Of a stretch of DNA of 64,000 bases, positions 11,135 through 34,646 are shown in pieces. The stretch is from Candidatus Sumerlaeales bacterium (GTDB taxonomy: Bacteria > Sumerlaeota > Sumerlaeia > Sumerlaeales > Sumerlaeaceae). The first letter of the stretch is position 1. Every line of letters begins with the position of its first letter. A model generated the notes under the pieces. It did no database searches, was not told the origin of the DNA, and worked only from the letters and a program-made list of their open reading frames with translations. The stretch spans positions 67,703 to 131,702 of the forward strand of contig JBBSQY010000003.1 in assembly GCA_038243585.1 (NCBI GenBank), given 5' to 3'. The position numbers and the translations under genes are program-made.

Positions 11135-12150
11135 ATCTGGATGGCCTGAACTCATTCGCGGCGGATCAATACGGCGATTCTATATTTAGGGTAGGCTTGC
11201 CCTGGGTGCTTCTACTTTTGCTCCTCCTGCCTTTTTTGCTCTGGTGGCTTCGCCATCGGGAACGTCGTCGCACTACCACTATCTCTCTTCCAGTTGCGCA
11301 GCTGGCCACATCCATTAGCGCTGGAAATCCTCGGCGCTGGCGACTGATGCTGGACGTTATGCGCATTGTGGCCCTGGCCCTCTTCATAATCGCAATGGCC
11401 CGCCCGCAGTATGGCCGTATAGAGCGAGAAACCTTTAGCGAGGGTATAGATATTGCCCTGGTTCTGGACGTGTCGCTGTCCATGCGCGCAGGAGATTTTC
11501 AGCCCAATCGCCTGGAAGCCGCAAAAGACGTCATAAAGCAGTTTGTACTGGAGCGGCGGGGAGATCGCCTGAGTCTTGTGATTTTCGGCGGCGAAGCAGC
11601 CACCCTGGTTCCGCTTACGCTTGATTCAGACGTGGTTTATTCCTTTGTTGAGCGGGTACGTTTTAATCTGGTCAGTGGAGATACCACTGCCATCGGAATG
11701 GGTTTGGCCACGGCGCTCGATCGTCTTCGCGAGAGCAAGGCCAAAAGTAAAGTCGTTATTCTGCTTACTGATGGTGAAAACAACGCTGGCAAAATCGACC
11801 CCCAAAAAGCCGCGGAAGCCGCCCGGGCACTAGGCGCAAAAGTTTACACAATCGGCGTAGGCAGCAACTCGCCACAAATCGGACCCTTCGGTATGCGGGT
11901 GGATGCCGGGCTGGACGAGGCCAGTTTAACCAAAATGGCAGAGGTCACTGGAGGAAAATACTTCCGGGCTGGAGACGAAGAGAAGCTGCGTGATATTTAT
12001 CAGCAAATTGATAAGCTTGAGAAATCAAAAATCGAATCAACGCAATTTGACAATTTTAACGAACTTCTCCACTGGTTCGTTCTGCCGGCCCTCTGCCTGC
12101 TCCTCATCGAACTTGCCCTTAGATCAACGAGGTTTATTTTATTGCCATGA
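11131..12150 (+). CDS. batA: vWA domain protein BatA
   Basis: N-terminal TMs, AMARPQ, MIDAS DVSLSM, PNRLEAAK, TAIGMGLA, ILLTDGENNAG, KVYTIGVG, TGGKYFRA. Confidence 0.92.
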   Translation: MNLDGLNSFAADQYGDSIFRVGLPWVLLLLLLLPFLLWWLRHRERRRTTTISLPVAQLATSISAGNPRRWRLMLDVMRIVALALFIIAMARPQYGRIERETFSEGIDIALVLDVSLSMRAGDFQPNRLEAAKDVIKQFVLERRGDRLSLVIFGGEAATLVPLTLDSDVVYSFVERVRFNLVSGDTTAIGMGLATALDRLRESKAKSKVVILLTDGENNAGKIDPQKAAEAARALGAKVYTIGVGSNSPQIGPFGMRVDAGLDEASLTKMAEVTGGKYFRAGDEEKLRDIYQQIDKLEKSKIESTQFDNFNELLHWFVLPALCLLLIELALRSTRFILLP

Positions 12151-16236: not shown

Positions 16237-17033
16237 AAAGCATGAGCGCATTGCTGAAAATCCTGGTAGTCACCATGGCTTTTTGTGTTTTCCCAACGCA
16301 CGGTCGGGCTGCAACCACTATGACTTTACAAACTGCCAATGATCTGTTTGCCGCGGGCAACGCCTTCTATCGGGGTCAGAATTTTGAAGCTGCCCGAGAA
16401 GCTTATCAACAATTGCTTAACGCAGGGTATGACACTGCGCCTGTCCTTTATAATCTTGGAACCGCGGAAGCGCGGATGGGTAGCGCCACCCAGGCGCTCG
16501 CACACCTGGCAAGAGCTGAAAAACAGCGTCCGCGTGATGGTAACATACAGGCTAATATTGCTTTCGTAAAAAAAGCACCAGTGCAGTCCCTTAATACAAC
16601 CGCTAATGAATTGGTGGTCAGGGAGTCGATCTGGAGCCGAATCTATGGGTTCTTGACGGCAAGAGAATGGTTGGCGCTGCTGTGGATGGGGCTTATGGCT
16701 GCTTGTACTGGTGGAGTTTTACTGTTCTTCGCGCGCAACGCCCGATTGCACTCGATCGCGCACGGCTTAGTATTGGGTGGAGCAGGATTTATGGCCCTCG
16801 TTACTATCCCAGCCGCTACTCAATATTATCAATCACGTGTAGTCCAAAGTGCCATCGTAGTTTCGCCAGCGGAGTTATTAAGCGGCCCGGCACAACGGTT
16901 TACCCGCATAGCGAATCTTACTCAGGGCCAGATCGTCCGTAACCTTAAGGGTTCTGAAAAAGATTACCTGCATGTAAAACTGGACAATGGTCTTCACGGT
17001 TACGTGAAAAGTGATGCATTGCTCGAGATGTAA
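16233..17033 (+). CDS. batE: BatE-like TPR + SH3-like protein
   Basis: Signal peptide, GNAFYRGQNFEAA...LYNLG...PRDGNIQANI TPRs, two TMs, C-terminal SH3b-like LSGP...GLHGYV. Confidence 0.82.
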   Translation: MKSMSALLKILVVTMAFCVFPTHGRAATTMTLQTANDLFAAGNAFYRGQNFEAAREAYQQLLNAGYDTAPVLYNLGTAEARMGSATQALAHLARAEKQRPRDGNIQANIAFVKKAPVQSLNTTANELVVRESIWSRIYGFLTAREWLALLWMGLMAACTGGVLLFFARNARLHSIAHGLVLGGAGFMALVTIPAATQYYQSRVVQSAIVVSPAELLSGPAQRFTRIANLTQGQIVRNLKGSEKDYLHVKLDNGLHGYVKSDALLEM

Positions 17034-17089: not shown

Positions 17090-18667
17090 TTACCTTGCCG
17101 GTGGTGCAGTCGCGGGACGGTTACTTCTACCTGAAAACCATCTGATTACAAGTCCAATTAACCCCATGGCAACGAGGGACAACCCTAGAAAACTGCCCCA
17201 TATACCAGCTTTCCCCAGCAATGGCGCCAAGGGAGTATCGAGTCCCTGCAGGATCATATAAATTGTATACCCCAGCATAGGCAGCCAGGAAAGGGGCATG
17301 ATAATGATTCCCATAATCAGCAGGGTTGCGGAACTATTGGACTTTTTCGACTTTATGGCCGTGATCCCATCGTTTTTAACTGCGCTACTTGAAGCGGCCG
17401 TTTGTGCAGTCGGGTTGGAATCTGCGCCGGATGATTGTTCTTCCACATTATCTGCGCTGGTGTCAGGGGGCAAAGGAGTGCGACGCAAGGCGCTGATTTG
17501 CGGCAATCCAGACGTGGCAACAAAAGCGTAGCCGCAGGTAGGACATTTTACGCGGCTGTCTTTATTCCCGTCGTAAAGCGATATGGGCGTGCCATCAAAG
17601 GGACACTGCACATTATCCATGGCGTGTCCGGAGTGTTCAACATTAACGAGTTCGCGGGCAGCAAGATCCGATAATCCAGTAGTCAGAACTCGCAGGCGTT
17701 CAATGATGTGATCCTGTTGAACCAGCAGCATGTCGGCGTAGCGCTGCAGGTCCATGCGCCGACGCAACTGGTTCAGATACAGCAGGCAAGGATCATAGGT
17801 ATCCTGCTCGCGCGCATTGAGGCGCTCCATGCCCTCTTTACAGGTCAGATGATAGCGTTCCATCTCCAGATGGAGCGGTTCGAGCACAGTGGCAGTAAAC
17901 GCCCGTTGAATCTGATCAAACCGGGCCAGAGCCAGATGGTTATCCTCAACCGCGTCCATAAGTGGCCGGTGGGATGCCGACGCAGTAAGCACGTTGCGCA
18001 GAGCCTGACTAAAAACGGAATCGCGATATGAATCCCAGCCACGCAAAAGAATTTGGGCCTGAGTGTTCATGCCAGAAGTGTGCTGGTTCCAGTCTAATCC
18101 TCGCATAGAGCACACGAGGCGGTGGGTGAAAGCCAGGTAATCCGGTGAAAGGGGCTGATTCTCAATGGTCAGCGGAACATTTGTGGGCAGAGGAACATGG
18201 CCTGTAGCCGGTGAGTTAAGGACAAGCTTTCCCATTCCTAGAAAAACAGCGGTTACATCCGCCATGCTGCCGGCGGTCCGGTCCGGCTCTACGCTGCCGC
18301 CCGCGATGTTGCTGATTATAAGATAGGTGCGCGCGATCTGGCGGGTTATGAATGCCAGTGCAGTGGTCGGGGTGGCCAATGCAGAAACGGGTACTTCCAT
18401 TGCAAAATGTTCGTTGCCCGGATCCGTACGCACGAGACGTGGTGGCTGGCCGTCATTGATGATCGTAAGGTCGAACATGGCATTACGAAGCCCGATCCAA
18501 TCGCCCAGAACACGAGAAACCACCTGAAGTGCGGGTAGTTCTGTGGACGTCAGAGGCGGAGGATCCAGAATCCGATAATGAGCGCGTACCCCCGCGGCTT
18601 TTTCCAGCGTAGCAAGAAGCTCCAGGATATGTCGCGCCACTGGATCGGCGGCTAAACGGCTATCCAA
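17090..18667 (-). CDS. Hypothetical membrane protein (degenerate zinc-peptidase-like domain, coiled coil, Zn ribbon, 2 C-terminal TMs)
   Basis: 525-aa ORF (TTG start) with DVTAVFLGMGKLVLN, a helical centre, CPFD-x-CPTC and two hydrophobic helices at the C-terminus. Confidence 0.65.
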   Translation of the reverse strand: MDSRLAADPVARHILELLATLEKAAGVRAHYRILDPPPLTSTELPALQVVSRVLGDWIGLRNAMFDLTIINDGQPPRLVRTDPGNEHFAMEVPVSALATPTTALAFITRQIARTYLIISNIAGGSVEPDRTAGSMADVTAVFLGMGKLVLNSPATGHVPLPTNVPLTIENQPLSPDYLAFTHRLVCSMRGLDWNQHTSGMNTQAQILLRGWDSYRDSVFSQALRNVLTASASHRPLMDAVEDNHLALARFDQIQRAFTATVLEPLHLEMERYHLTCKEGMERLNAREQDTYDPCLLYLNQLRRRMDLQRYADMLLVQQDHIIERLRVLTTGLSDLAARELVNVEHSGHAMDNVQCPFDGTPISLYDGNKDSRVKCPTCGYAFVATSGLPQISALRRTPLPPDTSADNVEEQSSGADSNPTAQTAASSSAVKNDGITAIKSKKSNSSATLLIMGIIIMPLSWLPMLGYTIYMILQGLDTPLAPLLGKAGIWGSFLGLSLVAMGLIGLVIRWFSGRSNRPATAPPAR

Positions 18668-19221: not shown

Positions 19222-21870
19222 ATGATTGATGTTCAAGGTGGGCGCAAGCGCGAGCCAGTCGCCGCTACTGATGAATTGGTAAGTGAAGCGGTCGCCATTG
19301 GCGTCGTGCTGTTGGCGGTGCTGATGACGTTGGCGTTAATTACCGAAGACGCCGGCAGCAACTTGGTCGGACGCGCTGGGTCCGTTGTCAGCGGTGGACT
19401 CACGTTCGCCGTCGGACGGTACGTCGCTTTCGTAGTACCGTTGCTGGTGCTCGCAACAGGCGTGCTGGTGTGGCGCGGAAGCGGACTTCATCGCGCAGGG
19501 CTCAGGATTATCGGGCTCTATGGCACAATGGTAAGCGTCTGTGCCTTGTTAGCGATTCCCTATGCCCAAAGTAATTTTAATGGAGACGACGGGTTTAGAT
19601 CAGGTGGGGCTCTCGGTAATTTCCTGGTACATTCTCAATGCCTGAACCTGGCTGGGTTGCTTGGGACAGCGGGAGCGTATCTGCTGTTTTCCGCGCTGCT
19701 GGTGGTCAGCCTTAGCACTGCCACCGATGTGCGGGTACGGGACACCATCATCGCTATTTCCGACTGGATACGTGGCAGCGGGTGGCGAAAATTTGTTTCT
19801 CCACTAGCGGCATGGGGCGCCCAGTTTACTTCCAGATTAGAGCAAAAGGATAATCTTGACGTAGAGCAACCGTTAGCTGTTAGATTTACTCCACAGGATG
19901 TGCAACCCGAAACCTACGGACGCAGCAGCAGGCTCGCGGCAGGACTCGACGCTGCTCCCGCTTTGGCCCAAGCACCGGCAACTGCTGCAACTACTGCAAC
20001 TACTGCAACTGCTCACGTCGCGCAGACGAATTACATTCCTGCATTTGCTCCGTCAACACCCACACCTGCTGTTCCTGTGGCCAGTGTCCCGGTGCAGGGA
20101 TGTCCCGGTTTGTCACTCGTTTCCGATGACGAAGACAATGATTTGGTAAGCATGGCGGAGGCCGGTCCAGGAATCCAGAGTGAGCTTGCGCTGATAAAAC
20201 CTTATCAGACACCACACTACACGATTCTGAACGCTCCTCCGACCGTTGTAAACGCCATGACCAATGAAGAGGTGGCGGAGATTTGCGAACGCCTGGAGAA
20301 AACCCTTGGTGAGTTTAACATCGTCGCCAGCGTGGTACAGGTAACGCAGGGACCTACCGTCACTCGTTATGAAATGCAGCCGGCTGCCGGGGTGAAGGTG
20401 GCGAAAATAGCGTCCCTTGAAAACGACATAGCCATGTGCATGAAAGCGGAAAGCGTTCGCATCATCGCGCCAATCCCCGGAAAGGGAACCGTTGGTCTGG
20501 AAATACCGAACAAGAAATCAAAGCCGGTTTTCCTACGGGAAATGCTTGAGACGGACGTATTCCGAAATCACCCGTCCCCTTTGGCTTTTGCCCTGGGCAT
20601 GACCATTGGTGGTGAGCCCTTCATTAGTGATTTGGCCACCATGCCCCACGTGCTTATCGCCGGTCGTACCGGCTCCGGTAAATCCGTTTGCCTGAACGCT
20701 ATTATCTGCTCTATTCTTTTTCGCATGACCCCTGACAAGGTTAAATTCCTGATGGTGGATCCTAAGCGTGTGGAACTCAACGTCTATCAGGCGATTCCTC
20801 ACCTGCTGGCGCCGGTGGTATGTGAGCCACGCAAGGCGGCGGCAGCGCTGACCTGGGCCGTGGAGCAGATGGACGAGCGCTATAAAAAATTGGCGGCAGT
20901 TGGCGTTAGGAATATTGACGGTTTTAACGCTATCGCTCAAAGCGATAAGCCGCACCCCAAGGCAATGGGGCGTCAACTCGCGTATATGCCCCATATCGTG
21001 ATAGTAATCGACGAATTGGCAGACTTGATGCTGATCGCTCGCAATGAAGTGGAAGACAATATCATCCGCCTCGCGCAAATGAGTCGTGCGGTTGGAATGC
21101 ATCTGATCCTGGCGACGCAGCGCCCATCGGTCAACGTTATCACTGGTATTATTAAAGCCAACTTTCCAAGCCGTGTGGCATTTCAGGTATCAAGCAAGGT
21201 GGACAGTCGCACGATTCTGGACGCCATGGGCGCAGAGGCTCTTTTGGGTCGGGGTGATATGTTGTTCAGTCCCGGCGGCAGCCCAAAGCCAATTCGGCTC
21301 CAGGGATGCTACCTGAGCGACGACGAAGTGGAAGCAACCGCGGACTGGGTGAGGAGCCAAGCTAAGGCACAGTATGAGATGCAAGACTTCCTGACCAAGA
21401 AGGAACAGGACGAATTGCGGATGGCGTCCAGCAACACAATGGGTAAAGATATGCTCAGCATGGACGGCATAGACGCAGACGAATCAACAGTGGCTATGCC
21501 TGAAGACGGCGACGATTATGATTTCACTTATCAGCAGCAACGGCGTGACGGCCGTTCTGTTGCCGAGGTGATGAACAGAGGCACATCCCCCTCGGCGCCC
21601 GTTCGTACGCATAATACCGATGAAAGCGACGCCATTGACGAGGAGTTGTTCAGTCAGGCCACAAGACTCATCCTAACACATCGTAAGGCGAGTGTTAGCC
21701 TGCTTCAGCGAAAACTAAAGATTGGCTTCGCCCGCGCAGGTCGCGTAATGGATATGCTGGAAGAACGGGAAATTGTCGGACCAAACGTAGGCAGCAAAGT
21801 TAGGGACATCCTGGTTGATCCGGATGAGTTTATGGCTGAAATGGATGAAGGCGACGATATGCGGTTCTAA
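19222..21870 (+). CDS. ftsK: DNA translocase FtsK
   Basis: 4TM N-domain, low-complexity linker, GPTVTRYE, HVLIAGRTGSGKS, IDELADLM, LATQRPSV, DSRTILD and gamma domain SVSLLQRKLKIGFARAGR. ATG at 19222 follows GAGGG. Confidence 0.97.
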   Translation: MIDVQGGRKREPVAATDELVSEAVAIGVVLLAVLMTLALITEDAGSNLVGRAGSVVSGGLTFAVGRYVAFVVPLLVLATGVLVWRGSGLHRAGLRIIGLYGTMVSVCALLAIPYAQSNFNGDDGFRSGGALGNFLVHSQCLNLAGLLGTAGAYLLFSALLVVSLSTATDVRVRDTIIAISDWIRGSGWRKFVSPLAAWGAQFTSRLEQKDNLDVEQPLAVRFTPQDVQPETYGRSSRLAAGLDAAPALAQAPATAATTATTATAHVAQTNYIPAFAPSTPTPAVPVASVPVQGCPGLSLVSDDEDNDLVSMAEAGPGIQSELALIKPYQTPHYTILNAPPTVVNAMTNEEVAEICERLEKTLGEFNIVASVVQVTQGPTVTRYEMQPAAGVKVAKIASLENDIAMCMKAESVRIIAPIPGKGTVGLEIPNKKSKPVFLREMLETDVFRNHPSPLAFALGMTIGGEPFISDLATMPHVLIAGRTGSGKSVCLNAIICSILFRMTPDKVKFLMVDPKRVELNVYQAIPHLLAPVVCEPRKAAAALTWAVEQMDERYKKLAAVGVRNIDGFNAIAQSDKPHPKAMGRQLAYMPHIVIVIDELADLMLIARNEVEDNIIRLAQMSRAVGMHLILATQRPSVNVITGIIKANFPSRVAFQVSSKVDSRTILDAMGAEALLGRGDMLFSPGGSPKPIRLQGCYLSDDEVEATADWVRSQAKAQYEMQDFLTKKEQDELRMASSNTMGKDMLSMDGIDADESTVAMPEDGDDYDFTYQQQRRDGRSVAEVMNRGTSPSAPVRTHNTDESDAIDEELFSQATRLILTHRKASVSLLQRKLKIGFARAGRVMDMLEEREIVGPNVGSKVRDILVDPDEFMAEMDEGDDMRF

Positions 21871-21885
21871 CTCGCCGCGCCCAGA

Positions 21886-24800
21886 CTACTGGCCGAGTTT
21901 TTTTGAGTCGCTGGGGTCCAGCGCCGCTTCACGACACGCTACCAACAGGTCCATCAGGGCTACCCGTTTGTTCACCGAGCGGCTGGCTTTTAGCACATGG
22001 TCATCCTCTGTCGGTTTGTTTGCCTTGGAGTTTATGTTCTCAGCGGCATTCACCGACTCAAGGCCGCCGCGTGCGTCGTTATTAAACGGATCGATTAATC
22101 GCACCTGCTCATAGGCGAGGCGGGCGCGGAGCATTTCACCGCTCAGCAGCAGTTTCTCGGCCATGAGAAGATAGTCAGGAATAGCTTCGGCTTCTGGCGC
22201 GATCAGACTAATACAGTCGATACACTTCTGAATTAGCTCTGGTTGGTCGTCATGAAGACTGCGGGCTGTGCGGAAGGAGTCCAAAGCATTATCAATATCG
22301 CCCGCGTCAAACTGGCGGTTTCCCAGTCGTACATAATGAACGTATTGTAACGACGGATCATAGGAGTCGCGGCGAATGGCATCGCGAACATCATCCACTG
22401 TTTCCGGCTCACATTGGTCTACGATGCGGTAGGCATTTTCGGCTTCTAACATCTCGCCGCGATTGAGATGAACCTCCGCCAGAATCCGGGCCTGACGAGC
22501 AGCCTCCATAGTGTCTCCTGAATTCAAAAGGAGCTCCACCAGGCGCTGACGGACAGCCGTATTATTTTCATCCTGGGTCAAAATTCGACGATAGGTGTCT
22601 ATGCCTTTAACCGCGGCCGTACTAGCTAGGATGGCCGTGGCTCTGGAATAGCTTACGCGGGCGTCCTCGTGCATGCCGGCGGCTTCTTGGGAAGCCGCCA
22701 GGGCGAGACATAGATCGGCGTCTCGCGGTGAAATGGTCAGAGCCGCGTTCAACACTTCCACAGCGGCGGAGGGTTCATGGCGGTCCATGTACAGGTTCGC
22801 AAGTGTGCGCATTTCCGATAATGCCCTGTTCCGACTTCCCCGGCTAAGAAGGAATGTCGCATACCGCGACCGCGCCGCGGTGTTATCCGGAGCCATTCCC
22901 AGGATCTGCTCGTAAGTTTGAAGAGCCCCCTCAAAATCGCCCCGCCGCTCAAGAGCGTCTGCCAGTTTTCCGTATTCCTGAGGCATATTTTTTTCTGGAG
23001 ATTCAACTTGCGACAGCAGCTCCACGTACCGCGTGAGTATCGCTGGATCATCGGGAACAATGGACGCAAGTTTACGATAGGCTTCAAGGCCTTCCAAATC
23101 CCGGTTCGCTTTTTCGTAAATGTCAACAAGCTCCCGCAGCACATCAGCCTGCTGATCCCGGTTTCCTGTTTTTTCATACAACTCAGCCAGTTGCTCGCGC
23201 ACTTCCGGACTATCCGGTTGTTGGCGGGAAAGACGATCCAGCGTTGCGGTCGCTTCCGAAAACTCGCCACTATCCAGAAGCGACGGGATAAGGCCAAGCC
23301 AAGCGTCAAATGCCTCTTGCTGCATCCCCGCCTCTTCACAAGCTTGGGCCAGAGTTTTGCGCGCTTCCGCCCAAGCAGGACGAAACTTTACAGCTTTGTT
23401 CAGGAGTTCAATGCGGCGCTCCGTGTCTTTTGCGCCCAGCGCAGCATCTGCGGCGGCCCGATAATATCTGGCTGCCAGGTCCGGGTAGGAACTGGCCGCC
23501 AGCATATCTGCTATGCGCTCTCTGCATGGGATATTTTCCGGGTACTGCTCAACCAGGGCTTCGGCCTGATCACGGGCTTCTTCCAGCTCAGCGCGTTCCA
23601 GCAGGATACGAACGATATGCAGATGCTGCTCAATAGCTTCCTCTGGCCTATGCGCATTGTTAAGGCTGCGAGCAAGGTCGCGGTGCAAGGCAATCTGTCC
23701 GGGCGCCAGATCAACCAGTTCATACAGGACAGAAATAGCTTCTTCCTGTCGTCCCTGCTTTTCATGTTCTTCCGCTTCCCGGCGCAAGCGAAGTTGTAAT
23801 TCTTCCAGGCGACCCATCTGGCGGATCATGTCATAATGAGCCTGTTTCAATTGCTGATTGGATGGCACCCAATTTGTGCCCTCGGCCAGCAGACTCTCGG
23901 CCAGTTCCGAATTTCCCGCTTTATTTTCGTGATCGGCAAGCCAAATATACTCTTCGGCTCCCTTATCATGATTTTCCGTCTTGCGGTAAAATTCTAGCGC
24001 CGTCTGATGGACATGACGGTCCTCCGGTAGGGCTTGTACCAATTTTGCCAGCAATGGCGCAACTCGCTGTGCTTCGGTTGAGGTGGCCTTATCCATTACA
24101 TGGAAAACGCTCATACGGGCAGTTTCCATGTCCCCGATGCTGATCGCCAGCTCTCCCAGATGTCTCCATGCCTGGACTGTTCCAGGGCTTATTTGTGTTA
24201 CGCGGCGGTAGCACGTGAAAGCATAAGCCGTTTCGCCGGCCCCTTCATACAATTCCGCCGCTCGCATCCATTCAGCGACAGCTTCCGAAACCCGGTTCAG
24301 GCTTAACAGGGATTCTCCCAAGTCGTTATGGGCGGCGGCATCGGAATTGTCATAATTCAAAATAGTTACTGCAGCCAGGCGAATCCGTTCCGGATCTTCG
24401 GTTTCCCGTGCGACCGCCAGCAGCTGACGAGCGTAAAGGAGGCCTTTTTCAGAATTCCCTGCTCCCGCGCAGCAATCCAGCAATTTTGAAAGCAGGGCAG
24501 TGTCTCTGGGTGACCGCTCAAGTAGACGCTCATATTGACGAAGGGCGCTGGTGTGATCTCCCAGTTTCTGAAACTTTGTTGCAAGGGCGCGAGTGGTTGT
24601 AGTGAAAACTTCAACGTCGTTTGATTTGCCAGATAGCGACGCAAGCTGTTCCAGTATTTCCAGGTTATCGGGATCAAGTTGAAGGTATGATTGAAGTAGA
24701 CGACAGGCCTCACCCACGTTTCGTCGAGAAGCCTTCACATCGGCCAGTTTCCCAGTGAGTTTCCCCATGGCCTCAAGATCACCATTATCCCGAGCATCGT

Positions 24801-27800
24801 TCAACAGCGCCTGCAAAGCCGTTTCATTCCCCGGTTGTAGAGTAAGCACATGTGCATAAATTCGCCGGACCCGCTCATGGTGCTCAGCCTGCTGAAATAG
24901 CTCTGCCGTCTGCAGCCAATTGTCTATGGCGGAATCCGGTGCAATTGATTCCAAACGCGTTGCCAGTTTTTCCCGGAGATCAGTATTTCCCGGCGCCAGT
25001 TGAACAACCCGATTTAAAGCTTCTAAAAGTAAGTCGGTGTTGTTCATCTGCTCTGCCGACACGATAACTTCCTGTAGCAGGGCGACTGCTTCTTCCTGTC
25101 GCTTTTCTCGGACAAAATAGTCGGCCAGGGTGGCCTTCACATAAAGGTTATCAGGCTCCGCGGCAAGAGCCTCCAAGTAACAATCTTCCTCTTCGGAAAC
25201 CGCACCTGACATACTAAACAGCCTGGCGGCCTCCAGTGCGGAACGCCGTGCGTCTGACAGCATTTCAGACTGCCTGAATACCTGCGCCGCGAGGTACCAT
25301 GTATCCGCGGAATCCGGAGCAATATCCAATAATGTAGTCGCAATATCGAGCGCTTCAGAAAGTTTATTCTGGTCTGCCAGGCTTTTGACGCGTTGATGCG
25401 CGATACCGACCAGGAAGGTGCTTCCACCCAGGGTATGGATGGTTTTAAATATTTCAAGACCACGGGCCGGAGTGGTGGTGTCAAGCAGCGCAAGAGCAAT
25501 AATCTGGCTTTGTTTCTGACGTCGCGCCGTTAGGGCCGACCGCAGTTGTTCCCGAGCCACATCGTAGACATCGTCGCCCAAGCGGCGGACCAATGTCGCT
25601 ATGGATTCCGCCGGGATAGCGGATGGTTTCGCCGATATTGCCCGATTGACGTTTGCTATGGCCTGTTCAGACTTCCCGTCTTCTGAGAAAAGCAGGGCGG
25701 CCGTCATAAACTGTGCGGTGGCCTGATCGAGACGGCGGGAGCGTTCGTTTAGTTCAGCCAGAAGTCTGTATTGCTGCGCTGTAGAGACTAAGCCGGCAGC
25801 TTCATCCATCGCTTCAATGGCGGCATCGGTGTCGCCTGACGCAAGGGCATCACTGGCCAGTGTCATTAATTCCTGACGCAGGCGATTTCGGTTTCCGGTC
25901 AGGCGCAATGGTTCGAACAGTTCCTGACGCAGGCTCATGTCATGTGGCGCAAGAGCAATGACCTGAGTCAGCACGCTGATTGCGTCATCGGAATGGCATG
26001 CTGCGGTCCTGGCGCGCGCAGACTTCAATCCCCGTGTCATAGCCCGTGCGGGCGGAAGCATATCCATGTGACGGACAACATAATCGGCATTGAGCGGCGC
26101 AATTTCAATCGCCTGGGCCAAAAGAGCTTCGCGCCGGGATTTGTTTCCGGAATGCTTGTCCAGCTCTGATAGAGCGATATCAATTAATTTAACGGCGGAA
26201 TCGGAGTTCCCGGCCTTACTATGAGCGGCTGCGGCGATGCTGTAATCTTCAGGCAGGGCGGAATCCCCCGCCAGTTTCAACAGATCATCAAACACTTGGG
26301 CGGCATCGGCGGGCTTGCCACTATCTTGTAATATGCGGCCAGCATGGCGAAGATGGTCCTGAGCTCGTGCCGGGCTGTTGCCTTTTCTATAAAGGTCGGC
26401 GATGATCAAGTGCTCAAGTGGGTCTGCTGCAGACTCATGAGCTATTGCTGCTTCCAGCGTCTGCGCCGCTCCCTGGTAATCGCCCTCCGCTTCCAATAGA
26501 TTTGAAAGCTGTTTAAGATATGGCAGCGCCTCCATGGGGCGCTCAGTCTTCATCTGAGCGTCGGTCAGATCTCGCAACAGCGCTGTGGATGCAGGAATTG
26601 TTTCTACCAGGCGTATAAGATCGGCAATCCACTGGTTTTCGTCGACAGAATCTCGACGCTGATTAGCCCACTGGCGGTACAGCGGCAATGCTGCCGGCGA
26701 ACCTTCTATCTTATGCACCAGTTCTGCCAGGGTCCATAAGACGTCCGGGTTGTCAGGGTGCAGCGTAAGAGATTCCCGATAAGCAGCCATAGCACCGACG
26801 CTATCGTCTGAAGCTGCAAAAGTGTCGCCGATATCTGCCAGCGTGACGGCCGCATGCTCTGGTTGTTCAAGAGCCTTCTGAACCTCAACCTTATGCCGCA
26901 GCGCCGCCAGAAGGGCAGGGGACATATCCAGAATCTGGTCCAGAACTTCCAGAGCCGCATTAAACTGGCGGGATTGTTGAAGGAGTCTCGAGACCTCCAG
27001 CAAAGCATTTATCGCGTCGGCGGACTTGCCTAACTCGATGTTAGCATCCGCAAGTAACCGATGAGCTTCAGGGTTAGTGCCGGCCAAGCTGGTCCAGCGC
27101 CGGGCCATCTCCAGTGCTTCTGCGGCCTTGCCGGATTCCAGTAGGTTTCTTCCGCTGTCTGCAACCCACGTCAGGGCTTGCTGTTCATTCTCCATGCCCA
27201 TTAGAGCATCGGCGCGGGCGCTCGTGAGCACTCCGCTTTGACGAGTTAAATTCTCATCCAACCCACAAATGGCGATCAGTGCCGATGCGTTATTATCAGC
27301 GCCGGCAATGGTTGCGGCTGCTTCAAGGTCGGTCAGCGCCAAATCTGGACGTGCCTCGGACAATAGGGCGGTGGCGAGTTCAATCAGTGCGTTGACGTCT
27401 GCGCCATGTATCTTACGCAGATGCTTAAGAAGTGCTGCAAGCTGGGGTGATTTATCTGCGGTAAACTTATGGACTAGCTGAATCTGGTGGGGGAACGCTT
27501 CCGTATATCTTTTTGCTTCTGTTAAAAGTATAGCAAGCAGTCTGTGGACTTCAAAAGGCGCGACGCCCAAAGCGACTGCCGACTGGAGGGTCGTAATAGA
27601 TTCTTCTGTTGCCCCGGCGCTCTTGCTGGCGCGAGCAGATTGCACATAAGCTTCCGTTGCCTTTTCTGGATCCTGCTCAGCGGCGGCAATAGTCAGGTAG
27701 AGTCCGGCCTTTGCAGCGTGGTCAGATAGATCCGCCGCAAGTTTTCGGGCGGCGTCGAAATTGCCGGTCTGAGCGAATGTAACGCCAAGGAGTCGGCTTG

Positions 27801-30735
27801 CCTGGGCGTGGACGTCTGATTTCTTCTCTTGTCCCGAAAGGATTGCTAAGAGAGTATCCTGATCAGCGGCAGTGAAAAGGTTTTTTGATACCACCTGCTG
27901 TAGGGTCGCAAGAGAATGCTTTGCATCCCCCGCTTTAAGATATGCGGCCGCGGCGGCGGAAAAAGCCAGTGCGGCATTCTCAGGCTGGTCAATGGCAAAT
28001 AACGCCGCCCCAAGAGCCTCGTGGGCTTCTGCGCTGTCCGGGGCGACGCGCGTCCGTTCCTTCGCCCATCGTACCGCAGTCTGAGGTGGCCCTGATGCGG
28101 CAAACAGTGATGTAAGTTCCTCGGCTGCAGCCTGCGCGACGGGAACAAGCCCGGTAGCTTCGCTCGCGTGAAACAGCGCTTCCCAGGAAGCCGCAGAAGT
28201 TGGGCCTGCGACTTGAGCGGAATTCGTGCATCGGACAGCGCTTTCCGTATCGCCCTGCAGAGAATACGCTGTAGCGGCTTCGGCATACGCCTTGGCGGCG
28301 GCGTCACTTGCGCCGGTGATTTTGCATACCTCGCCATACTGCTCACTAATCTGAGGAATCTGCGGTGCAGAGGCGGCGGCCAGCTTCAGGACCTCGCCGG
28401 CGCTTTTCCAGTCACCCTGCATTGAGAGGCGTCCGGCTTGCCGAGCGCGGAGTTGAGCGACCCCTTCGGCTGCATCTAGTATTTCCAGAGATTCAATTGC
28501 ATCTTTAATGAAAGCATCATCATCAGGATACAGATCGGCATAGGCGAGATAGCCAGTTGCCGCTAACGCAGGATCAGTCTCCGCCCGCGTTGCTCGCAAT
28601 AGTTCATCGGTCAGCGGAGCGGCCTCATCCGGCGTCAGAAGCTCCACGGCCAGCATGGCCTGAATTGCTAATGCTTGAACAGAATCGGGATTTAGCGTGA
28701 CGGATTCGCGAGCAAACTGCAGGGCCGTCTCAAAATCTCCAGACGCGCGCAGGGTGGTCGCCACAGAGGAATACTGTTCCGCTGCCTCTGCCGATCGACC
28801 AAGGGACGACAGAAGAAAAGCAATGTCTGAAGGTGCTGACGGATGTGAAGGATCAAGAACCGCCATGCGCCGCGCCGCCTTAAGCGCAGACTCGGCATCC
28901 TCTTCAGCGAACCCCTGGATAACGTTTTGATAGATCAGCCCGACAAGATCCGTTCGTGATACCTGCTCTCCCTGCATGATAAGGCGAGGCGCGGCCTGCC
29001 CATATTCCGAAAGGCTGCCGGCTATAAACTCCAGTATTTCCACTGCTGCGTCGACTTGACCATTATTAAGGAGAGACTGAATGGAGTCAGCTGCCGCTTC
29101 TGCTCCCTGTGCAGGAGAAAGTTGATAAAGAAGCTGAACGTAACGTCGATGATTTTCCAGCTCTGTCGGAGACAGGCGAACCATCAGTTCATAAATATCT
29201 ACGCGTTCTTCCGGGCGAGCCGTTTCCTCTGCGGAAGCATAAAGTAGCCGAAGTTGATCCAAAGCAATATCTGCCGCATTATGATTCGCCAGCGACGCCA
29301 CCATTTGAAGTTTTAATGGCAGAGATATGTCTTTTGAGATTCCGTCCAGCAAAAGTGCTGAGGCATCATTTGCCTGATCGGAGGAATATAGGATTTCCGC
29401 AAGATCAATCATTTCAAAGGCGGCGCGTTGGTCCTGATCCATGGCCTGAAATTCGAGAATCAGCCGACGTCGCAGCGACGCGTCGGCAGGCAACAAAAAT
29501 TTCGCCCGAAGCAGAAGGTCTGCAGCGCGCTCGTGCAACCCGGTCGAAGCGGCTATTTTAGCTCCTTCCGCTAAGTACACGGCCGCTTCGGTCCCACGTT
29601 CCTGGTCGAGAAGCACGCGAGCCAACAGTTCTCTCGCATCAATGTTGTCCGGTTCACGTTCAAGCCAGCTATTTACGGTAGAGACCGCGAAGCCAAATTC
29701 CTGTTGATCAATCTGCTGATTTACTGCGCGAAAAGTATGGTCTCTCGCTTTATCGATGTTGCCAAAATCCGCCAGATGCCGGGCCAGATCCAACCGGGCG
29801 CGAATGTTTTCGCCATTAAACTGGATGACTTTTTCCAGTAGTTCTATGCCTTTTTCGGTGAGTCCCGCAGCTAAATAGGATTTCGCTGCGTTATCATATT
29901 GCCGGGATGCACCGCGTACATTGTGCTGCTGTTCGTACAATCCTGCGAGTTTAATTGGGAGATCCGTACGGGTCGGGGCCTTTTCAACCAACTGTTCAAG
30001 GAGTCCGATGTTATCCAGGTGACGATTTGTTCCTTCGCGGATCTCCACGATTTTTTCCATGCGCTCGATGGCCAGATCATTGTCGCCGCGTCCCTCTGCG
30101 ACTTTGACCCGCATAAAAAGCAGATCTTCATTATCAGGAAATCGCTGGATAGCATCATTAACAAGTGCCTCCGCGTCATCGAGGCGCTGAGCGGACAGGT
30201 AGTATTCGACAATCTTCGAGTACTCTTCAGCGGCGGCTTGAGGGTCTCCCATTTCCGCCTGAATGGAGGCGAGAATGACTCTGGCCTCCGGAAGGTCAGG
30301 CGAGACGGAGATAAGTTCCCGCAACAGCGACTCTGCTTCCGTTAAATCACCGCGATCCCTGGCCGACCTTGCGTCATTTAAATAGGACTCGACAAGATGA
30401 TCTTTCCAGTTTGGGTCCATCTCCAGACCCATCTGCTCTGCCAATTCAATAGCGGCGGAAAGAAGTGATAACTCTTTAGCGAGGGCGTAAAGTTCAATAA
30501 AAGAGCCGCCCGAGTAGCCCGGGCAGGTCTTGATCGTGCATCGAAATGCATGCCTTTCACTATCAACCAGCAAAGATCTGAAGCGCGAATCTTTGTGGAT
30601 GGGACAGAATGCCTTTAGTGTATCTCCGGCATGCTGCACCTTTTCCGAATGGAATCCAATCGCATCCAGCACAGCCACGGCGTTTACGTGAGCGTTGATA
30701 TCCTCGACGAGAGTAATGGCAAATTCAGTACTCAA
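21886..30735 (-). CDS. Giant (2949 aa) TPR-repeat protein with N-terminal CHC2-type (DnaG-like) zinc finger
   Basis: Uninterrupted 8.85-kb ORF. Residues 44-71 are CPIH-x18-C-x4-C in a primase ZBD-like context. The rest is tandem TPR-like repeats with P-D/P-N turns. Confidence 0.88.
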   Translation of the reverse strand: MSTEFAITLVEDINAHVNAVAVLDAIGFHSEKVQHAGDTLKAFCPIHKDSRFRSLLVDSERHAFRCTIKTCPGYSGGSFIELYALAKELSLLSAAIELAEQMGLEMDPNWKDHLVESYLNDARSARDRGDLTEAESLLRELISVSPDLPEARVILASIQAEMGDPQAAAEEYSKIVEYYLSAQRLDDAEALVNDAIQRFPDNEDLLFMRVKVAEGRGDNDLAIERMEKIVEIREGTNRHLDNIGLLEQLVEKAPTRTDLPIKLAGLYEQQHNVRGASRQYDNAAKSYLAAGLTEKGIELLEKVIQFNGENIRARLDLARHLADFGNIDKARDHTFRAVNQQIDQQEFGFAVSTVNSWLEREPDNIDARELLARVLLDQERGTEAAVYLAEGAKIAASTGLHERAADLLLRAKFLLPADASLRRRLILEFQAMDQDQRAAFEMIDLAEILYSSDQANDASALLLDGISKDISLPLKLQMVASLANHNAADIALDQLRLLYASAEETARPEERVDIYELMVRLSPTELENHRRYVQLLYQLSPAQGAEAAADSIQSLLNNGQVDAAVEILEFIAGSLSEYGQAAPRLIMQGEQVSRTDLVGLIYQNVIQGFAEEDAESALKAARRMAVLDPSHPSAPSDIAFLLSSLGRSAEAAEQYSSVATTLRASGDFETALQFARESVTLNPDSVQALAIQAMLAVELLTPDEAAPLTDELLRATRAETDPALAATGYLAYADLYPDDDAFIKDAIESLEILDAAEGVAQLRARQAGRLSMQGDWKSAGEVLKLAAASAPQIPQISEQYGEVCKITGASDAAAKAYAEAATAYSLQGDTESAVRCTNSAQVAGPTSAASWEALFHASEATGLVPVAQAAAEELTSLFAASGPPQTAVRWAKERTRVAPDSAEAHEALGAALFAIDQPENAALAFSAAAAAYLKAGDAKHSLATLQQVVSKNLFTAADQDTLLAILSGQEKKSDVHAQASRLLGVTFAQTGNFDAARKLAADLSDHAAKAGLYLTIAAAEQDPEKATEAYVQSARASKSAGATEESITTLQSAVALGVAPFEVHRLLAILLTEAKRYTEAFPHQIQLVHKFTADKSPQLAALLKHLRKIHGADVNALIELATALLSEARPDLALTDLEAAATIAGADNNASALIAICGLDENLTRQSGVLTSARADALMGMENEQQALTWVADSGRNLLESGKAAEALEMARRWTSLAGTNPEAHRLLADANIELGKSADAINALLEVSRLLQQSRQFNAALEVLDQILDMSPALLAALRHKVEVQKALEQPEHAAVTLADIGDTFAASDDSVGAMAAYRESLTLHPDNPDVLWTLAELVHKIEGSPAALPLYRQWANQRRDSVDENQWIADLIRLVETIPASTALLRDLTDAQMKTERPMEALPYLKQLSNLLEAEGDYQGAAQTLEAAIAHESAADPLEHLIIADLYRKGNSPARAQDHLRHAGRILQDSGKPADAAQVFDDLLKLAGDSALPEDYSIAAAAHSKAGNSDSAVKLIDIALSELDKHSGNKSRREALLAQAIEIAPLNADYVVRHMDMLPPARAMTRGLKSARARTAACHSDDAISVLTQVIALAPHDMSLRQELFEPLRLTGNRNRLRQELMTLASDALASGDTDAAIEAMDEAAGLVSTAQQYRLLAELNERSRRLDQATAQFMTAALLFSEDGKSEQAIANVNRAISAKPSAIPAESIATLVRRLGDDVYDVAREQLRSALTARRQKQSQIIALALLDTTTPARGLEIFKTIHTLGGSTFLVGIAHQRVKSLADQNKLSEALDIATTLLDIAPDSADTWYLAAQVFRQSEMLSDARRSALEAARLFSMSGAVSEEEDCYLEALAAEPDNLYVKATLADYFVREKRQEEAVALLQEVIVSAEQMNNTDLLLEALNRVVQLAPGNTDLREKLATRLESIAPDSAIDNWLQTAELFQQAEHHERVRRIYAHVLTLQPGNETALQALLNDARDNGDLEAMGKLTGKLADVKASRRNVGEACRLLQSYLQLDPDNLEILEQLASLSGKSNDVEVFTTTTRALATKFQKLGDHTSALRQYERLLERSPRDTALLSKLLDCCAGAGNSEKGLLYARQLLAVARETEDPERIRLAAVTILNYDNSDAAAHNDLGESLLSLNRVSEAVAEWMRAAELYEGAGETAYAFTCYRRVTQISPGTVQAWRHLGELAISIGDMETARMSVFHVMDKATSTEAQRVAPLLAKLVQALPEDRHVHQTALEFYRKTENHDKGAEEYIWLADHENKAGNSELAESLLAEGTNWVPSNQQLKQAHYDMIRQMGRLEELQLRLRREAEEHEKQGRQEEAISVLYELVDLAPGQIALHRDLARSLNNAHRPEEAIEQHLHIVRILLERAELEEARDQAEALVEQYPENIPCRERIADMLAASSYPDLAARYYRAAADAALGAKDTERRIELLNKAVKFRPAWAEARKTLAQACEEAGMQQEAFDAWLGLIPSLLDSGEFSEATATLDRLSRQQPDSPEVREQLAELYEKTGNRDQQADVLRELVDIYEKANRDLEGLEAYRKLASIVPDDPAILTRYVELLSQVESPEKNMPQEYGKLADALERRGDFEGALQTYEQILGMAPDNTAARSRYATFLLSRGSRNRALSEMRTLANLYMDRHEPSAAVEVLNAALTISPRDADLCLALAASQEAAGMHEDARVSYSRATAILASTAAVKGIDTYRRILTQDENNTAVRQRLVELLLNSGDTMEAARQARILAEVHLNRGEMLEAENAYRIVDQCEPETVDDVRDAIRRDSYDPSLQYVHYVRLGNRQFDAGDIDNALDSFRTARSLHDDQPELIQKCIDCISLIAPEAEAIPDYLLMAEKLLLSGEMLRARLAYEQVRLIDPFNNDARGGLESVNAAENINSKANKPTEDDHVLKASRSVNKRVALMDLLVACREAALDPSDSKKLGQ

Positions 30736-30822
30736 ACCACCGCCCGCGCGAGAGAAAGAATAGATAATCCAAAGTATGCGAAAACATCACAGCTGAGCTT
30801 TGTCCTGCTAATTAGAACGATT

Positions 30823-33321
30823 TCAAGCCTCCGAGATGCGGATGTTGTCCAGGTACAACGTTCCTGTAGTAGCGAGGTTGTCGCGGATTGACAGCGTGTT
30901 AAAATACTCGGGGGCGACCGGGAGTTTGCTGCCTTTAACAACCTGATCATCGTCAACCCAGGCATCTAGCAATCCCTCAACGAGATCAATTTCGTATTTT
31001 AAATGGCGCCAGGTTTCCATCTGGTAGGGAACGGCTTCACCCTGAACTCTCAAAGATGCAGGACCATTGGGGTCAAGCTGATGTACGATTGTATGCACCG
31101 ACTGCTTGAAATCCTCATCTTTTTCCAGATAAATGCCGAGCAGAAACTTGTTCTTATCGTCGCAGCGAACATCCAGTTCCAGCGTAACCCGACCCTTAGC
31201 CGGAGGGAAGCTTAAATGATATGTCGCGCTGCCTACGCCCTCCATTTTTTCATACATCAGGCATTTTGCGTGTCCTGCTTCTGCAAGATTCGCGACAGAT
31301 AAGGTGGAATAATCGTATTCTCCACGCCAGTCTGATGGTGAAGACCCCTCCGTTTCTTCATCGAAGCTCTGTTGAAAGACGATCTGTTCTGTTGAACCGG
31401 ACGCGGCGATTGCGCCTGCCGCAGACACGGCTGGCTCCAGGCTTTCAGGGACCGATTCGGATTCCTGCGAGGCGTCGCTAAAGCTGCCTCTTAACAGGGC
31501 CTCTAAATCGGCGTCCATGGAGCTGGTGACCTTTGCCGGCGTATTGTCTAACACAGGCGCTGCTGTTGGAAGGACAGGTTCTTCGTCGAAGTTGATGGAT
31601 ACAACCTCATCAGAGGGTGCGATCGTGCTTGCTGGCTCGGCGGATGATTCCGGTGAGATGTCGAAGGCACCAATTGAAACCATGTCGTTATCTTCGACCG
31701 GCGGGCTAGGGGCGGGAACTGGCGCAGGTTTGGCCAGTTCTTCCTCCTCGTCTTCGCTGTCATCCATAAGCGTAAAACCAGCCATTCCAGCAGCGCCCGC
31801 CATGGCAGGGCCGCCTGCCGGGGGGGATGTCATATTTACTGGCTGGCTGGTGATCCCCGCGGGAGTAGAATTAGAAGTCGCGTTGTAGCCACCGTCAGCG
31901 GCTAACGGGTCAATAAAATCCGGTCCGGAGGACGACAATCCGGCGGTTGACGGTAAGTTTTTTACGTTAACTTTTCGCCCTCTTGACTTCATCCAGATAA
32001 GAATAAGGATTAAAGCGATAAAAGCGCCAGCTCCGTAGAGAACAGGCTTGTTTTGCATCAACGCTGCAACACCGTCCGCGCTTTCTGATGACGCAGCGGG
32101 CTGGCGGGCTTCACCGAGGGCCGCCACTTTGCTGCGGGCTTCTCCATTGGTGGTGTCCAATGCCAGCACCTGGCGATATTTTTGAAGGGCTTCGTCATTA
32201 TTACCGGCGGTTTCCGAAGCACGAGCCTCGTTAAGCAGTTGTTGAACCTGCGCCGGATCGACGGAAGTTGAACTAGGTGCGGCCGCCGAAGTGACGATCG
32301 GGGTGCCGCCGGATTTCGCGATCTCTAAAGCCTTCACTCGACTTGCGAGGTAAATATCGTTAGAATCAAGCTGCCTAACATCCGCCAGTGCTTTTTCCGC
32401 GAAATCATAATTACGGTCTGCCATGGCACGCTCAAAGTCACGGTATAACGTAAATATCTGCTGCATTTTTTCACGGTCAGCGGATCGGCTGGTTTCCTGC
32501 CTGCTTACAATCGCTTTTTGATTTTCCGGCAGGTTCTGAATGGTTTCCCGCAACTGCTGAACCTCAGCAGCCGACGCTTCGCCGGATTCCACTTTTTCCG
32601 CCATTTCGAGTACCTGGCGAGTTTGCGTCTGCTCAGACTGCGATAAGCTACTTAGGTCTGCAGATGCGGGGTTCGCAGTATTTGGGCCGCGGAGCCTGTC
32701 ACGATTCACCACACTCGCCAAAGCAAAGCCGGCTTCATTGACCTGCGTCAATAAAGCGTTGGCGTCCGCCTTACGGTTAAACGTACCAAGCATCAGCATG
32801 TGGCGGCCATTTTCCTGGACCACGTCTACGTTGACAAATCCCTCATCTGCCAGAACCTCGCTTGCTCCTTCAGCTTCTGCCGCGGATCCGAACTCGGCCA
32901 CCTGTACCCGAAACACAGATTCCCCACCGCCTGCTGCGGGCGTAGTGCCATCCACAATACCTGAGGGGGTATAGCCGCCGCTTCTCAGCTTTTCCATTAC
33001 AGCATTTGCCGCATCGCGAGAAGCGAGACCACCAATCACTACATCAAAAGTGCCTTCTCCCGATGTCCGGGTTTCAGCTGCCACAAAATCTTCTTTTACC
33101 AGTTCGCTCTTTAAAGAGTTCGCTGTAGCCTCGGTTAGTTTTGGCGCGACAACCACACTGAAATTGCCTGATCCCCCTGCCGCTCCCGAAGGGGCCTGAC
33201 CCCCGCGAGGATTACTTCCACCAGAAGCGGCAGACTGAGCCGCGCAGGTGGAAATGGGGCCAATACATTGACCAATCAATGCAAGGCCGCTGAGACAGGT
33301 GCAAAAGGATTTCAGATTCAA
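30823..33321 (-). CDS. SPOR-SPOR-TPR single-pass membrane protein with acidic linker and C-terminal ConA/LamG-like domain
   Basis: TTG start after AGGAG. Signal peptide, two SPOR-like units (FRVQVAEF...ML-GTFNRKADA), TPR (QKYRQVLALDTTNGEA), TM VLYGAGAFIALILILIWM followed by KSRGRK, acidic/Pro region, beta-sandwich ending LYLDNIRI. Confidence 0.8.
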   Translation of the reverse strand: MNLKSFCTCLSGLALIGQCIGPISTCAAQSAASGGSNPRGGQAPSGAAGGSGNFSVVVAPKLTEATANSLKSELVKEDFVAAETRTSGEGTFDVVIGGLASRDAANAVMEKLRSGGYTPSGIVDGTTPAAGGGESVFRVQVAEFGSAAEAEGASEVLADEGFVNVDVVQENGRHMLMLGTFNRKADANALLTQVNEAGFALASVVNRDRLRGPNTANPASADLSSLSQSEQTQTRQVLEMAEKVESGEASAAEVQQLRETIQNLPENQKAIVSRQETSRSADREKMQQIFTLYRDFERAMADRNYDFAEKALADVRQLDSNDIYLASRVKALEIAKSGGTPIVTSAAAPSSTSVDPAQVQQLLNEARASETAGNNDEALQKYRQVLALDTTNGEARSKVAALGEARQPAASSESADGVAALMQNKPVLYGAGAFIALILILIWMKSRGRKVNVKNLPSTAGLSSSGPDFIDPLAADGGYNATSNSTPAGITSQPVNMTSPPAGGPAMAGAAGMAGFTLMDDSEDEEEELAKPAPVPAPSPPVEDNDMVSIGAFDISPESSAEPASTIAPSDEVVSINFDEEPVLPTAAPVLDNTPAKVTSSMDADLEALLRGSFSDASQESESVPESLEPAVSAAGAIAASGSTEQIVFQQSFDEETEGSSPSDWRGEYDYSTLSVANLAEAGHAKCLMYEKMEGVGSATYHLSFPPAKGRVTLELDVRCDDKNKFLLGIYLEKDEDFKQSVHTIVHQLDPNGPASLRVQGEAVPYQMETWRHLKYEIDLVEGLLDAWVDDDQVVKGSKLPVAPEYFNTLSIRDNLATTGTLYLDNIRISEA

Positions 33322-33450: not shown

Positions 33451-34437
33451 TCAAAATTTTTCGCAACCCTCCGGACGATTCCATCGAGACTCCGGGTTAA
33501 AGTGCTTCCAAAGAAGTTCTGATGTTTTTCCAATGGCGCGTTCGGCTTCGTTTGAGGAGTTCCAAGATTTGTCTTTGTTGTCTTTCGTATATACAGTCAG
33601 TATATAGACGCCACTAGGGGATGCGATGATGGCAGTGTCAGACCGGGAATCGCTGACTGAACCGCCTTTGCTGCCTACATAAGTCATCGGTGGTATTGCA
33701 CCGGGTATGCCGCCGTCAAAATACTGGTGTCCCAGTAGTCTCAGCATCTCATCGGTTGTACTGGTAGTTCCGGCCTCTCCAGACACAATCATTTCCAATA
33801 GAAGCCCTATCTCTCTGGGTGTCGTGCGGCCCAGTCCCCATATTTTTCTTCCATCAGGATCAGAAACGCTTGATCCGCCGACCGTGGAAAAAATGCGAGT
33901 CTTGTCAAACCCGTTGCGTGATAACCATCCGTTTACTACATCAAGACCGATCCACTCGCAAAGCATATTCGTAGCGATATTGTCGCTTACGGTAATCATC
34001 AGGTGCATCAATTCTTTTAATTCCAGCTGTGTTTTATCTTTGTAGTTTTGTATGAATCCCGATCCGCCGAAACTTTTCGCGGCGTCGTAGGGGATCTTGT
34101 CATAGTAGGAATTGTAAGGCCCTGTGCCTTTTGCGAGTAAATCAAAAGCGGTCACCATGACGGCCAACTTGATTGTGCTGGCTGTCGGAAATGGCTCGTC
34201 CGCGTTAATCTGAAACGTTTCGCCGTTACCAAGATGTTTGCAGTAGATTCCCATCACGCCCTGATGACCGGCGACGACTTTTTGAAGGTCGCCTAGTACC
34301 CCGTTTTCAAATTGTGTAGTGGCGGAGGTAACAAGGCTTGCCGTAATTAAGGACGAAGATGTTTGTGAGTCCGCGGCGCTAAAACCTGAAGCCGTGACGA
34401 GGCAAAATAAGCCAACGCTGTAAAGAATGCTTTTCAA
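33451..34437 (-). CDS. Serine hydrolase, class A beta-lactamase-like fold
   Basis: FPTASTIK (SxxK), SDNIATN and SKGG (KTG-equivalent). Signal peptide from the TTG at 34437, preceded by GAGGAG. Confidence 0.88.
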   Translation of the reverse strand: MKSILYSVGLFCLVTASGFSAADSQTSSSLITASLVTSATTQFENGVLGDLQKVVAGHQGVMGIYCKHLGNGETFQINADEPFPTASTIKLAVMVTAFDLLAKGTGPYNSYYDKIPYDAAKSFGGSGFIQNYKDKTQLELKELMHLMITVSDNIATNMLCEWIGLDVVNGWLSRNGFDKTRIFSTVGGSSVSDPDGRKIWGLGRTTPREIGLLLEMIVSGEAGTTSTTDEMLRLLGHQYFDGGIPGAIPPMTYVGSKGGSVSDSRSDTAIIASPSGVYILTVYTKDNKDKSWNSSNEAERAIGKTSELLWKHFNPESRWNRPEGCEKF

Positions 34438-34646
34438 AGGGGATTTCTCCTCGTCTAATCTAATGCGGTAAATTGGGTTACAGAAATAGAGATGGCAAGC
34501 ATGGTCTTGAGCCAAAGAAAAATACCCCACGGTTAAAAGTTAAATCACCTAATGCAGTATTGTTAAATTTTTTCATTTCTGTATTGACAAAAATACACAC
34601 GTCTTGTTGGTTCTTTTTAATCAATTGAAAATGAGTAAGGAGTAAA

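Follow-up and report, generated by a model that had tools for sequence, protein, structure and literature searches.

A SPOR-domain membrane protein and a giant zinc-finger TPR protein form a conserved gene pair in Sumerlaeota: a candidate pole landmark and type IVa pilus scaffold

Based on the comparison of 75 Sumerlaeota genomes, we conclude that a membrane protein with two SPOR domains (the landmark) and the giant zinc-finger TPR protein encoded next to it form a gene pair that is real, conserved and undescribed in the literature searched. We propose, with moderate confidence, that the landmark is a FimV-like marker of the cell pole and that the giant is a cytoplasmic scaffold positioning or controlling the type IVa pilus (PilMNOPQ/PilT). 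This points to a phylum-wide pilus placement that proceeds without the known targeting devices (a LysM landmark, AMIN domains on PilQ or the Mgl switch), and it offers the first functional handle on the family of TPR proteins headed by a primase-type zinc finger.

Neither a description of the landmark-giant pair nor a treatment of Sumerlaeota together with DnaA was found in the literature searched, which comprised main texts and few of the subscription journals.

Gene Layout of the Locus

The window, i.e. the whole stretch of 64,000 nucleotides analyzed from contig JBBSQY010000003.1 of a Candidatus Sumerlaeales bacterium, contained the features collected in Table 1. The original prediction had described two co-oriented minus-strand genes 87 bp apart and a giant whose stop codon lay 15 bp from that of ftsK. 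Both statements agreed with the ORF coordinates, the end of ftsK being at 21870. The ftsK start at 19222 was in agreement with the N-terminus of orthologs from the same genus. A promoter and terminator scan of the locus gave a result at chance level.

Table 1. Features of the landmark-giant locus (positions in the window)
Feature	Position	Strand	Basis or remark
Landmark gene, 832 aa	30823..33321	-	ORF; likely signal peptide, two SPOR domains, coiled/TPR region, TM, acidic Pro-rich tail, ConA-like beta-sandwich
SPOR domain 1 of landmark	32965..33168	-	PF05036, 35.1 bits
SPOR domain 2 of landmark, aa 135-199	32725..32919	-	PF05036, 39 bits
Single transmembrane helix of landmark, aa 426-444	31990..32046	-	Basic residues after TM; C-terminus predicted inside
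C-terminal ConA-like lectin-fold domain of landmark	30829..31398	-	Most conserved part; predicted cytoplasmic
Intergenic gap between landmark and giant, 87 bp	30736..30822	-	No terminator-like site found
Giant zinc-finger TPR gene, 2949 aa, soluble	21886..30735	-	ORF and domain search
Primase-type CHC2 zinc-binding domain of giant	30406..30729	-	Ligands Cys44, His47, Cys66, Cys71
ftsK, convergent neighbour, outside the conserved unit	19222..21870	+	Domain match and synteny

Several other genes flanked the locus. A class A beta-lactamase-like gene (PF13354; window 33451-34530, minus strand) was located 129 bp upstream of the landmark in the same orientation. Divergent from ftsK, and adjoining ftsK also in G002, was a gene encoding 525 aa (window 17090-18667, minus strand), whose product had two CxxC pairs and two hydrophobic helices near the C-terminus and no Pfam match. 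A Bat-type cluster (vWA-TPR, BatD-like and TPR-SH3) occupied the plus strand at window 12147-17033.

The Landmark Protein

The arrangement predicted for the landmark (signal, two SPOR domains, TPR, transmembrane helix, acidic tail and beta sandwich) was borne out by the domain, hydropathy and fold results. The signal peptide, with a peak hydropathy of 1.49, is likely as judged from the sequence only. The SPOR identity was confirmed by a Pfam search, in which PF05036 was matched with 65.4 bits against a cut-off of 21, and 29 of the 31 orthologs scanned were above the cut-off as well. A profile search of the source genome returned the landmark as its sole SPOR gene.

A weak TPR was located at about residues 362-398, and five K/R residues directly followed the transmembrane helix. 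The acidic Pro-rich tail of 198 aa contained 16% D/E versus 4% K/R, and tails of 130-430 aa were present in the full-length orthologs. A single internal transmembrane helix was recorded for 38 of 40 landmark sequences, and at least three K/R residues after the helix were likewise recorded for 38 of 40. The C-terminus and the lectin-fold domain were thereby predicted to be cytoplasmic, a placement which is unusual for a ConA-like lectin fold.

The last 195 residues were the best-conserved part of the protein (35-64% identity) and were modeled as an all-beta domain with a pLDDT of 95.8. A fold search with this model resulted in a ConA-like lectin sandwich (5mqs, Z 18.5, rmsd 2.6 over 172 residues), the closest fold relative being a sialidase accessory domain with 12% identity. 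The sequence of the C-terminal domain had no match among the solved structures, and an Atlas search with the domain yielded lectin/CBM-like look-alikes only. The longer landmark orthologs (L043:1531-4659 and L062:2562-6053) contained an additional periplasmic lectin-like domain ahead of the SPOR domains; a second copy of the C-terminal domain was not found in the long orthologs. The landmark of G015 (L058:1753-5337) ended in the acidic tail without the lectin-fold domain, and the zinc-finger TPR gene still followed it.

In its way of working, the landmark seems to resemble FimV of Pseudomonas and HubP of Vibrio and Shewanella, yet it is not a member of that family. A periplasmic peptidoglycan-binding domain, one transmembrane helix, a long acidic cytoplasmic region and a folded C-terminal domain are common to them, as described for FimV and HubP in PMC5285504 and PMC12918733. 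According to the same sources, FimV and HubP are also tied to type IVa pilus placement, a tie for which the support in the case of the landmark is comparative-genomic. However, wall binding is assigned to LysM in FimV/HubP and to two SPOR domains in the landmark; no LysM match was obtained in the landmark or its 31 orthologs. The C-terminus is formed by the FimV TPR domain there and by the ConA-like beta-sandwich here, whereas the TPR mass of the present system constitutes a separate protein of 1,260-3,820 aa with a primase zinc finger. Neither the landmark nor the giant matched the FimV family in Pfam or NCBIfam.

The division SPOR proteins of the FtsN type have a short cytoplasmic N-terminus, a transmembrane helix near it and a C-terminal SPOR domain. 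The landmark was rejected as a protein of this type, since its order is reversed, with N-terminal SPOR domains ahead of a helix at residues 426-444.

The Giant Protein and Its Paralogs

The giant had been predicted to be a soluble TPR protein of 2949 aa headed by a primase-type zinc finger, and the domain searches upheld this. TPR occupied the protein from about residue 110 onward (Pfam and NCBIfam), and only TPR-type families were matched beyond residue 114. An N-terminal signal was not seen and the hydropathy scan revealed no convincing transmembrane helix; the lone marginal hydrophobic window scored 1.73 at residue 1053. The CHC2 zinc finger scored 20.3 bits (below the cut-off) in one search and 27 bits (above it) in another, and the profile of the zinc-finger family matched the primase structures 2au3 and 1d0q. 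By sequence comparison, residues 1-110 share homology with the zinc-binding domain of primase. The predicted structure of residues 1-320 had a pLDDT of 96.4. In an alignment of 41 zinc-finger sequences, the Cys-His-Cys-Cys ligands were complete in 38, the basic residues at positions 41, 53 and 65 were conserved in 90-98%, and conserved basic and aromatic residues were present in the sheet region.

The finger of the giant thus shares the Cys-His-Cys-Cys ligands and sequence homology with the zinc-binding domain of the DnaG primase (PF01807; 2au3, 1d0q), but it differs in the Cys-x4-Cys spacing and in the fusion to TPR, and the giant has no RNA-polymerase/TOPRIM or helicase-binding domain. The giant was rejected as a primase due to the absence of the TOPRIM and helicase-binding domains and the presence of a separate, genuine dnaG (612 aa) elsewhere in the source genome.

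Large soluble cytoplasmic TPR scaffolds, SgmX and AgmK/GltI, act at the motility machines of myxobacteria. The giant is similar to them as a large soluble TPR protein and differs in its zinc finger of the primase type. The Mgl/SgmX polarity module is defined by an MglB roadblock protein and an MglA GTPase in the genome. This module was rejected, as PF03259 (MglB/roadblock) was matched in 0 of 5 genomes and an MglA-like motif scan of the 90%-complete source genome was empty.

Two further zinc-finger TPR genes were found in the source genome. The product of the first (L092; G000:C49:7638-11765, minus strand) combines a zinc finger and TPR with a complete DnaA domain III but lacks domain IV; a normal dnaA is present besides. 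The ATPase matched PF00308 with an E-value of 2e-66 and the DnaA structure 8bv3 with 267 bits. As in DnaA domain III/Hda, a complete DnaA AAA+ module is present without the origin-reading domain IV; the difference is that the ATPase comes after the zinc finger and roughly 1,000 or more TPR residues in this paralog, which is distinct from the giant of the window. Of 16 paralog loci retrieved from relatives, 14 were of the DnaA-ATPase type. The second gene (L093; G000:C18:10705-12318, plus strand) encodes a small paralog of ~530 aa with a zinc finger and TPR; it was convergent on an engA/der-like gene in the source genome and in G007. In a quick tree, the DnaA-type and the small paralogs each formed one strongly supported group, and the deep branches of the giants were not resolved.

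Conservation and Linkage of the Pair

The survey covered 75 genomes of the phylum Sumerlaeota assigned to 18 families (f-numbers). The C-terminal domain of the landmark was single-copy in 71 of the 75 genomes and the zinc finger was present in 72. A zinc-finger TPR gene was located directly downstream of the landmark in 38 of 70 evaluable genomes from 13 families, two of these (G034 and G065) being counted on weak zinc-finger scores and ten on coordinates alone. The pair was unlinked in the other 32 genomes, two of them judged from the giant's own locus, including all members of families f7, f9, f10, f13 and f18. Three genomes cut by contig ends and two without a detected landmark were left out of the 70. 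In the longer-protein search, which scored 8,000 candidates, one of the 18 matches listed was labelled Poribacteria.

The landmark and the giant could be old operon neighbours with separate jobs, where the giant would serve the pilus and the landmark other polar clients. The 32 unlinked genomes favor such an arrangement, and each protein occurs without the other: the landmark in f10, G006 and G037, and the giant in G045, where pili are present and the landmark was not found. It was nevertheless considered very unlikely, because the landmark-giant adjacency persists in 13 of the 18 families while the flanking genes vary, and because the SPOR domains and the giant were lost together in G006.

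The predicted link of the pair to ftsK was not borne out. An ftsK gene adjoined the pair in three of the 40 genomes with an ftsK match, all three from the source genus, and lay more than 1 Mb from the pair in the closed genome G007. Therefore, ftsK is not part of the conserved unit and its adjacency is incidental; on the same synteny, a partnership with FtsK was rejected. This bears on the main reading of the original prediction, a tether independent of the pilus that, in concert with FtsK, would hold DNA or the replisome at the septum. Such a tether would suit the only SPOR gene of the genome, a near-universal single-copy landmark that outlasts the loss of the pilus, and the conserved primase-type zinc finger. 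Besides the position of ftsK, it is contradicted by the dispensability of the giant for division, given that two good genomes are without any zinc-finger TPR protein and f10 is seemingly without a giant, and we regard it as quite unlikely. What stood of the predicted trans-membrane tether was the conserved co-oriented pair and its FimV/HubP-like anatomy; the FtsK link fell away.

Some unlinked loci had neighbours of their own. The landmark was followed by a Hel308/Ski2-type helicase in two f10 genomes (L046:5828-8713 and L048:6846-9524; one scanned) and by endonuclease V in two f7 genomes (L042:14145-14942 and L044; one scanned). In family f9 (L039, L096-L100, L108, L109), a conserved gene of ~550 aa came after the giant, with no Pfam match in the one scanned, and in four f9 loci a convergent pilT-family gene came after it.

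Co-absence and Gene Order with the Type IV Pilus

Type IV pilus genes have been reported across Sumerlaeota MAGs (PMC8092238). With the PilM of the source genome, taken from its pilMNOPQ operon, as the query, an ortholog was found in 71 of the 75 genomes and was missing in G006, G037, G010 and G047. The genomes without any zinc-finger match were G006 (92% complete), G037 (91%) and G010 (66%), and pilM and pilO were missing in all three. PilO was not found in these three, in G047 and in two others, and PilQ was not found in G006, G010 and three further genomes. The pilQ of G037 was a truncated remnant with an in-frame stop (L095:9569-10261) and had no pilMNOP nearby. In G047, the fourth pilM-less genome, pilQ was on a 3.1-kb contig. 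In the set of 43 high-quality genomes, the zinc-finger search and the PilM search each missed two, and in both cases these were G006 and G037, which belong to different families; the probability by chance is 1/903. The co-absence is thus read from two good genomes and one 66%-complete genome, all of which are assemblies.

Both G006 and G037 retained ftsK, dnaA and the C-terminal domain of the landmark. They also kept other pilus-like systems, with 6 and 3 PilT-family genes, respectively, versus 8-12 in three others; the source genome had twelve above the cut-off and no roadblock/MglB match. The landmark of G006 consisted of the signal, TPR, transmembrane helix, tail and C-terminal domain, both SPOR domains being lost, and no giant followed it although the contig continued. 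G037 had no comEC match and a stop in dprA, and may therefore be decaying broadly.

Gene order was informative as well. In one genome, G045, pilM-N-O-P-Q was followed after 187 bp by the giant, encoded in the same direction. At 9 of 23 loci, all nine from families f9, f11 and f14, the small paralog was directly upstream of a co-oriented pilT, a link which may go back to a single ancestral event. A search for AMIN domains in three Sumerlaeota PilQ gave no match in any of them. A pilus-scaffold role, given as the alternative in the original prediction, is accordingly better supported than its main reading, owing to the co-absence with pilM, pilO and pilQ and the gene order with pilQ and pilT.

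Proposed Mechanism

Beyond the domain anatomy, we infer each step of the following mechanism, a binding of the landmark to the giant included. SPOR domains bind denuded septal peptidoglycan (PMC5285504), and the landmark would be captured in this way at the wall becoming the new pole. The same source describes that the wall-binding domain of FimV is needed for the localization of PilO and PilQ in P. aeruginosa. In Sumerlaeota, the SPOR capture may take over the task that AMIN domains perform in the targeting of PilQ in Pseudomonas and Myxococcus. On the cytoplasmic side, the acidic tail of 130-430 residues would present the conserved lectin-fold domain for docking, and the giant might bind there or at the pilus base, organizing PilM and the many PilT motors. 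The shared zinc finger could be a targeting or DNA-contact module of the giant, the small pilT-linked paralog and the DnaA-ATPase paralog.

Some observations run counter to the pilus scaffold. Since G006 and G037 keep the landmark in the absence of the pilus core, it must have other clients, which is likely by analogy with HubP and FimV, as both serve multiple clients (PMC12918733). In family f10 (7 genomes, one closed), the landmark and pilM were present and each genome had one zinc-finger match, of the DnaA type where checked; hence, pili in f10 do not require the giant. A query with the last 500 residues of the giant matched 38 of the 75 genomes and missed known giants such as that of G045, so that it cannot show the absence of a giant in f10. 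Given f10, G045, G015 and the landmark outlasting the pilus core, neither of the two proteins is a core pilus part, and they look accessory or regulatory. Also, the pilus model does not account for the retention of the primase zinc finger and of its conserved basic and aromatic residues.

Possible Link to DNA

The conserved zinc finger and the DnaA-ATPase paralog make a link to DNA possible. The family member with a complete DnaA ATPase was lost with the pilus core, so that small soluble domains can be used to test whether the surface machine is directly connected to replication or to DNA coming in.

In one form of such a link, the landmark and the giant would be a polar hub, and the DnaA-ATPase paralog, brought there by the shared zinc finger, would co-assemble with DnaA or inhibit it, so that the pilus state or the pole identity gates initiation. 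This is a tentative idea which we hold to be rather unlikely. A paralog that has a full domain III but not domain IV, in a genome with a normal dnaA, is consistent with it, and so is the number of DnaA-type ATPases, which was two in most genomes and just one in G006 and G037, the good pilM-less genomes. In Vibrio and Shewanella, HubP brings oriC to the pole (PMC12918733), and in Caulobacter pili trigger cell-cycle entry, via a different, c-di-GMP route (PMC7196804). Against it, the DnaA-type paralog had no gene-order link to the landmark or pil genes at the 15 loci screened, and G024 (94% complete) had a giant and a single DnaA-type match. In its widest and similarly doubtful version, Sumerlaeota would have recruited a primase zinc finger and a DnaA ATPase into a pole-anchored scaffold family joining the type IVa pilus to chromosome replication, with the SPOR landmark at the new pole, the giant reaching across the cytoplasm and the paralog gating initiation by the pilus state. 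If true, this would be a direct protein link between pilus and replication, where Caulobacter relies on second-messenger signalling.

Alternatively, the scaffold under the pilus may act in DNA uptake, with the zinc finger, and the DnaA ATPase of the paralog, taking single-stranded DNA that enters via ComEC. The distribution of comEC (69 of the 75 genomes) fits in part: of the three genomes lacking a zinc finger, G037 and G010 had no comEC, but G006 retained comEC and dprA despite the loss of zinc-finger proteins and the pilus core, and comEC was not found in four genomes with zinc-finger proteins. DNA recognition is ascribed to the primase zinc domain in PMC6163395, in line with the conserved basic residues 41, 53 and 65, whereas no competence gene was recognized near the loci, whose neighbours were not systematically annotated. 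We consider DNA uptake unlikely.

Stand-alone proteins of the primase zinc-finger type, 129-142 aa in length, were additionally observed (L110:16857-17246, L112:6332-6760 and L113:6019-6417), and the one in L110 was located about 10 kb from pilQ.
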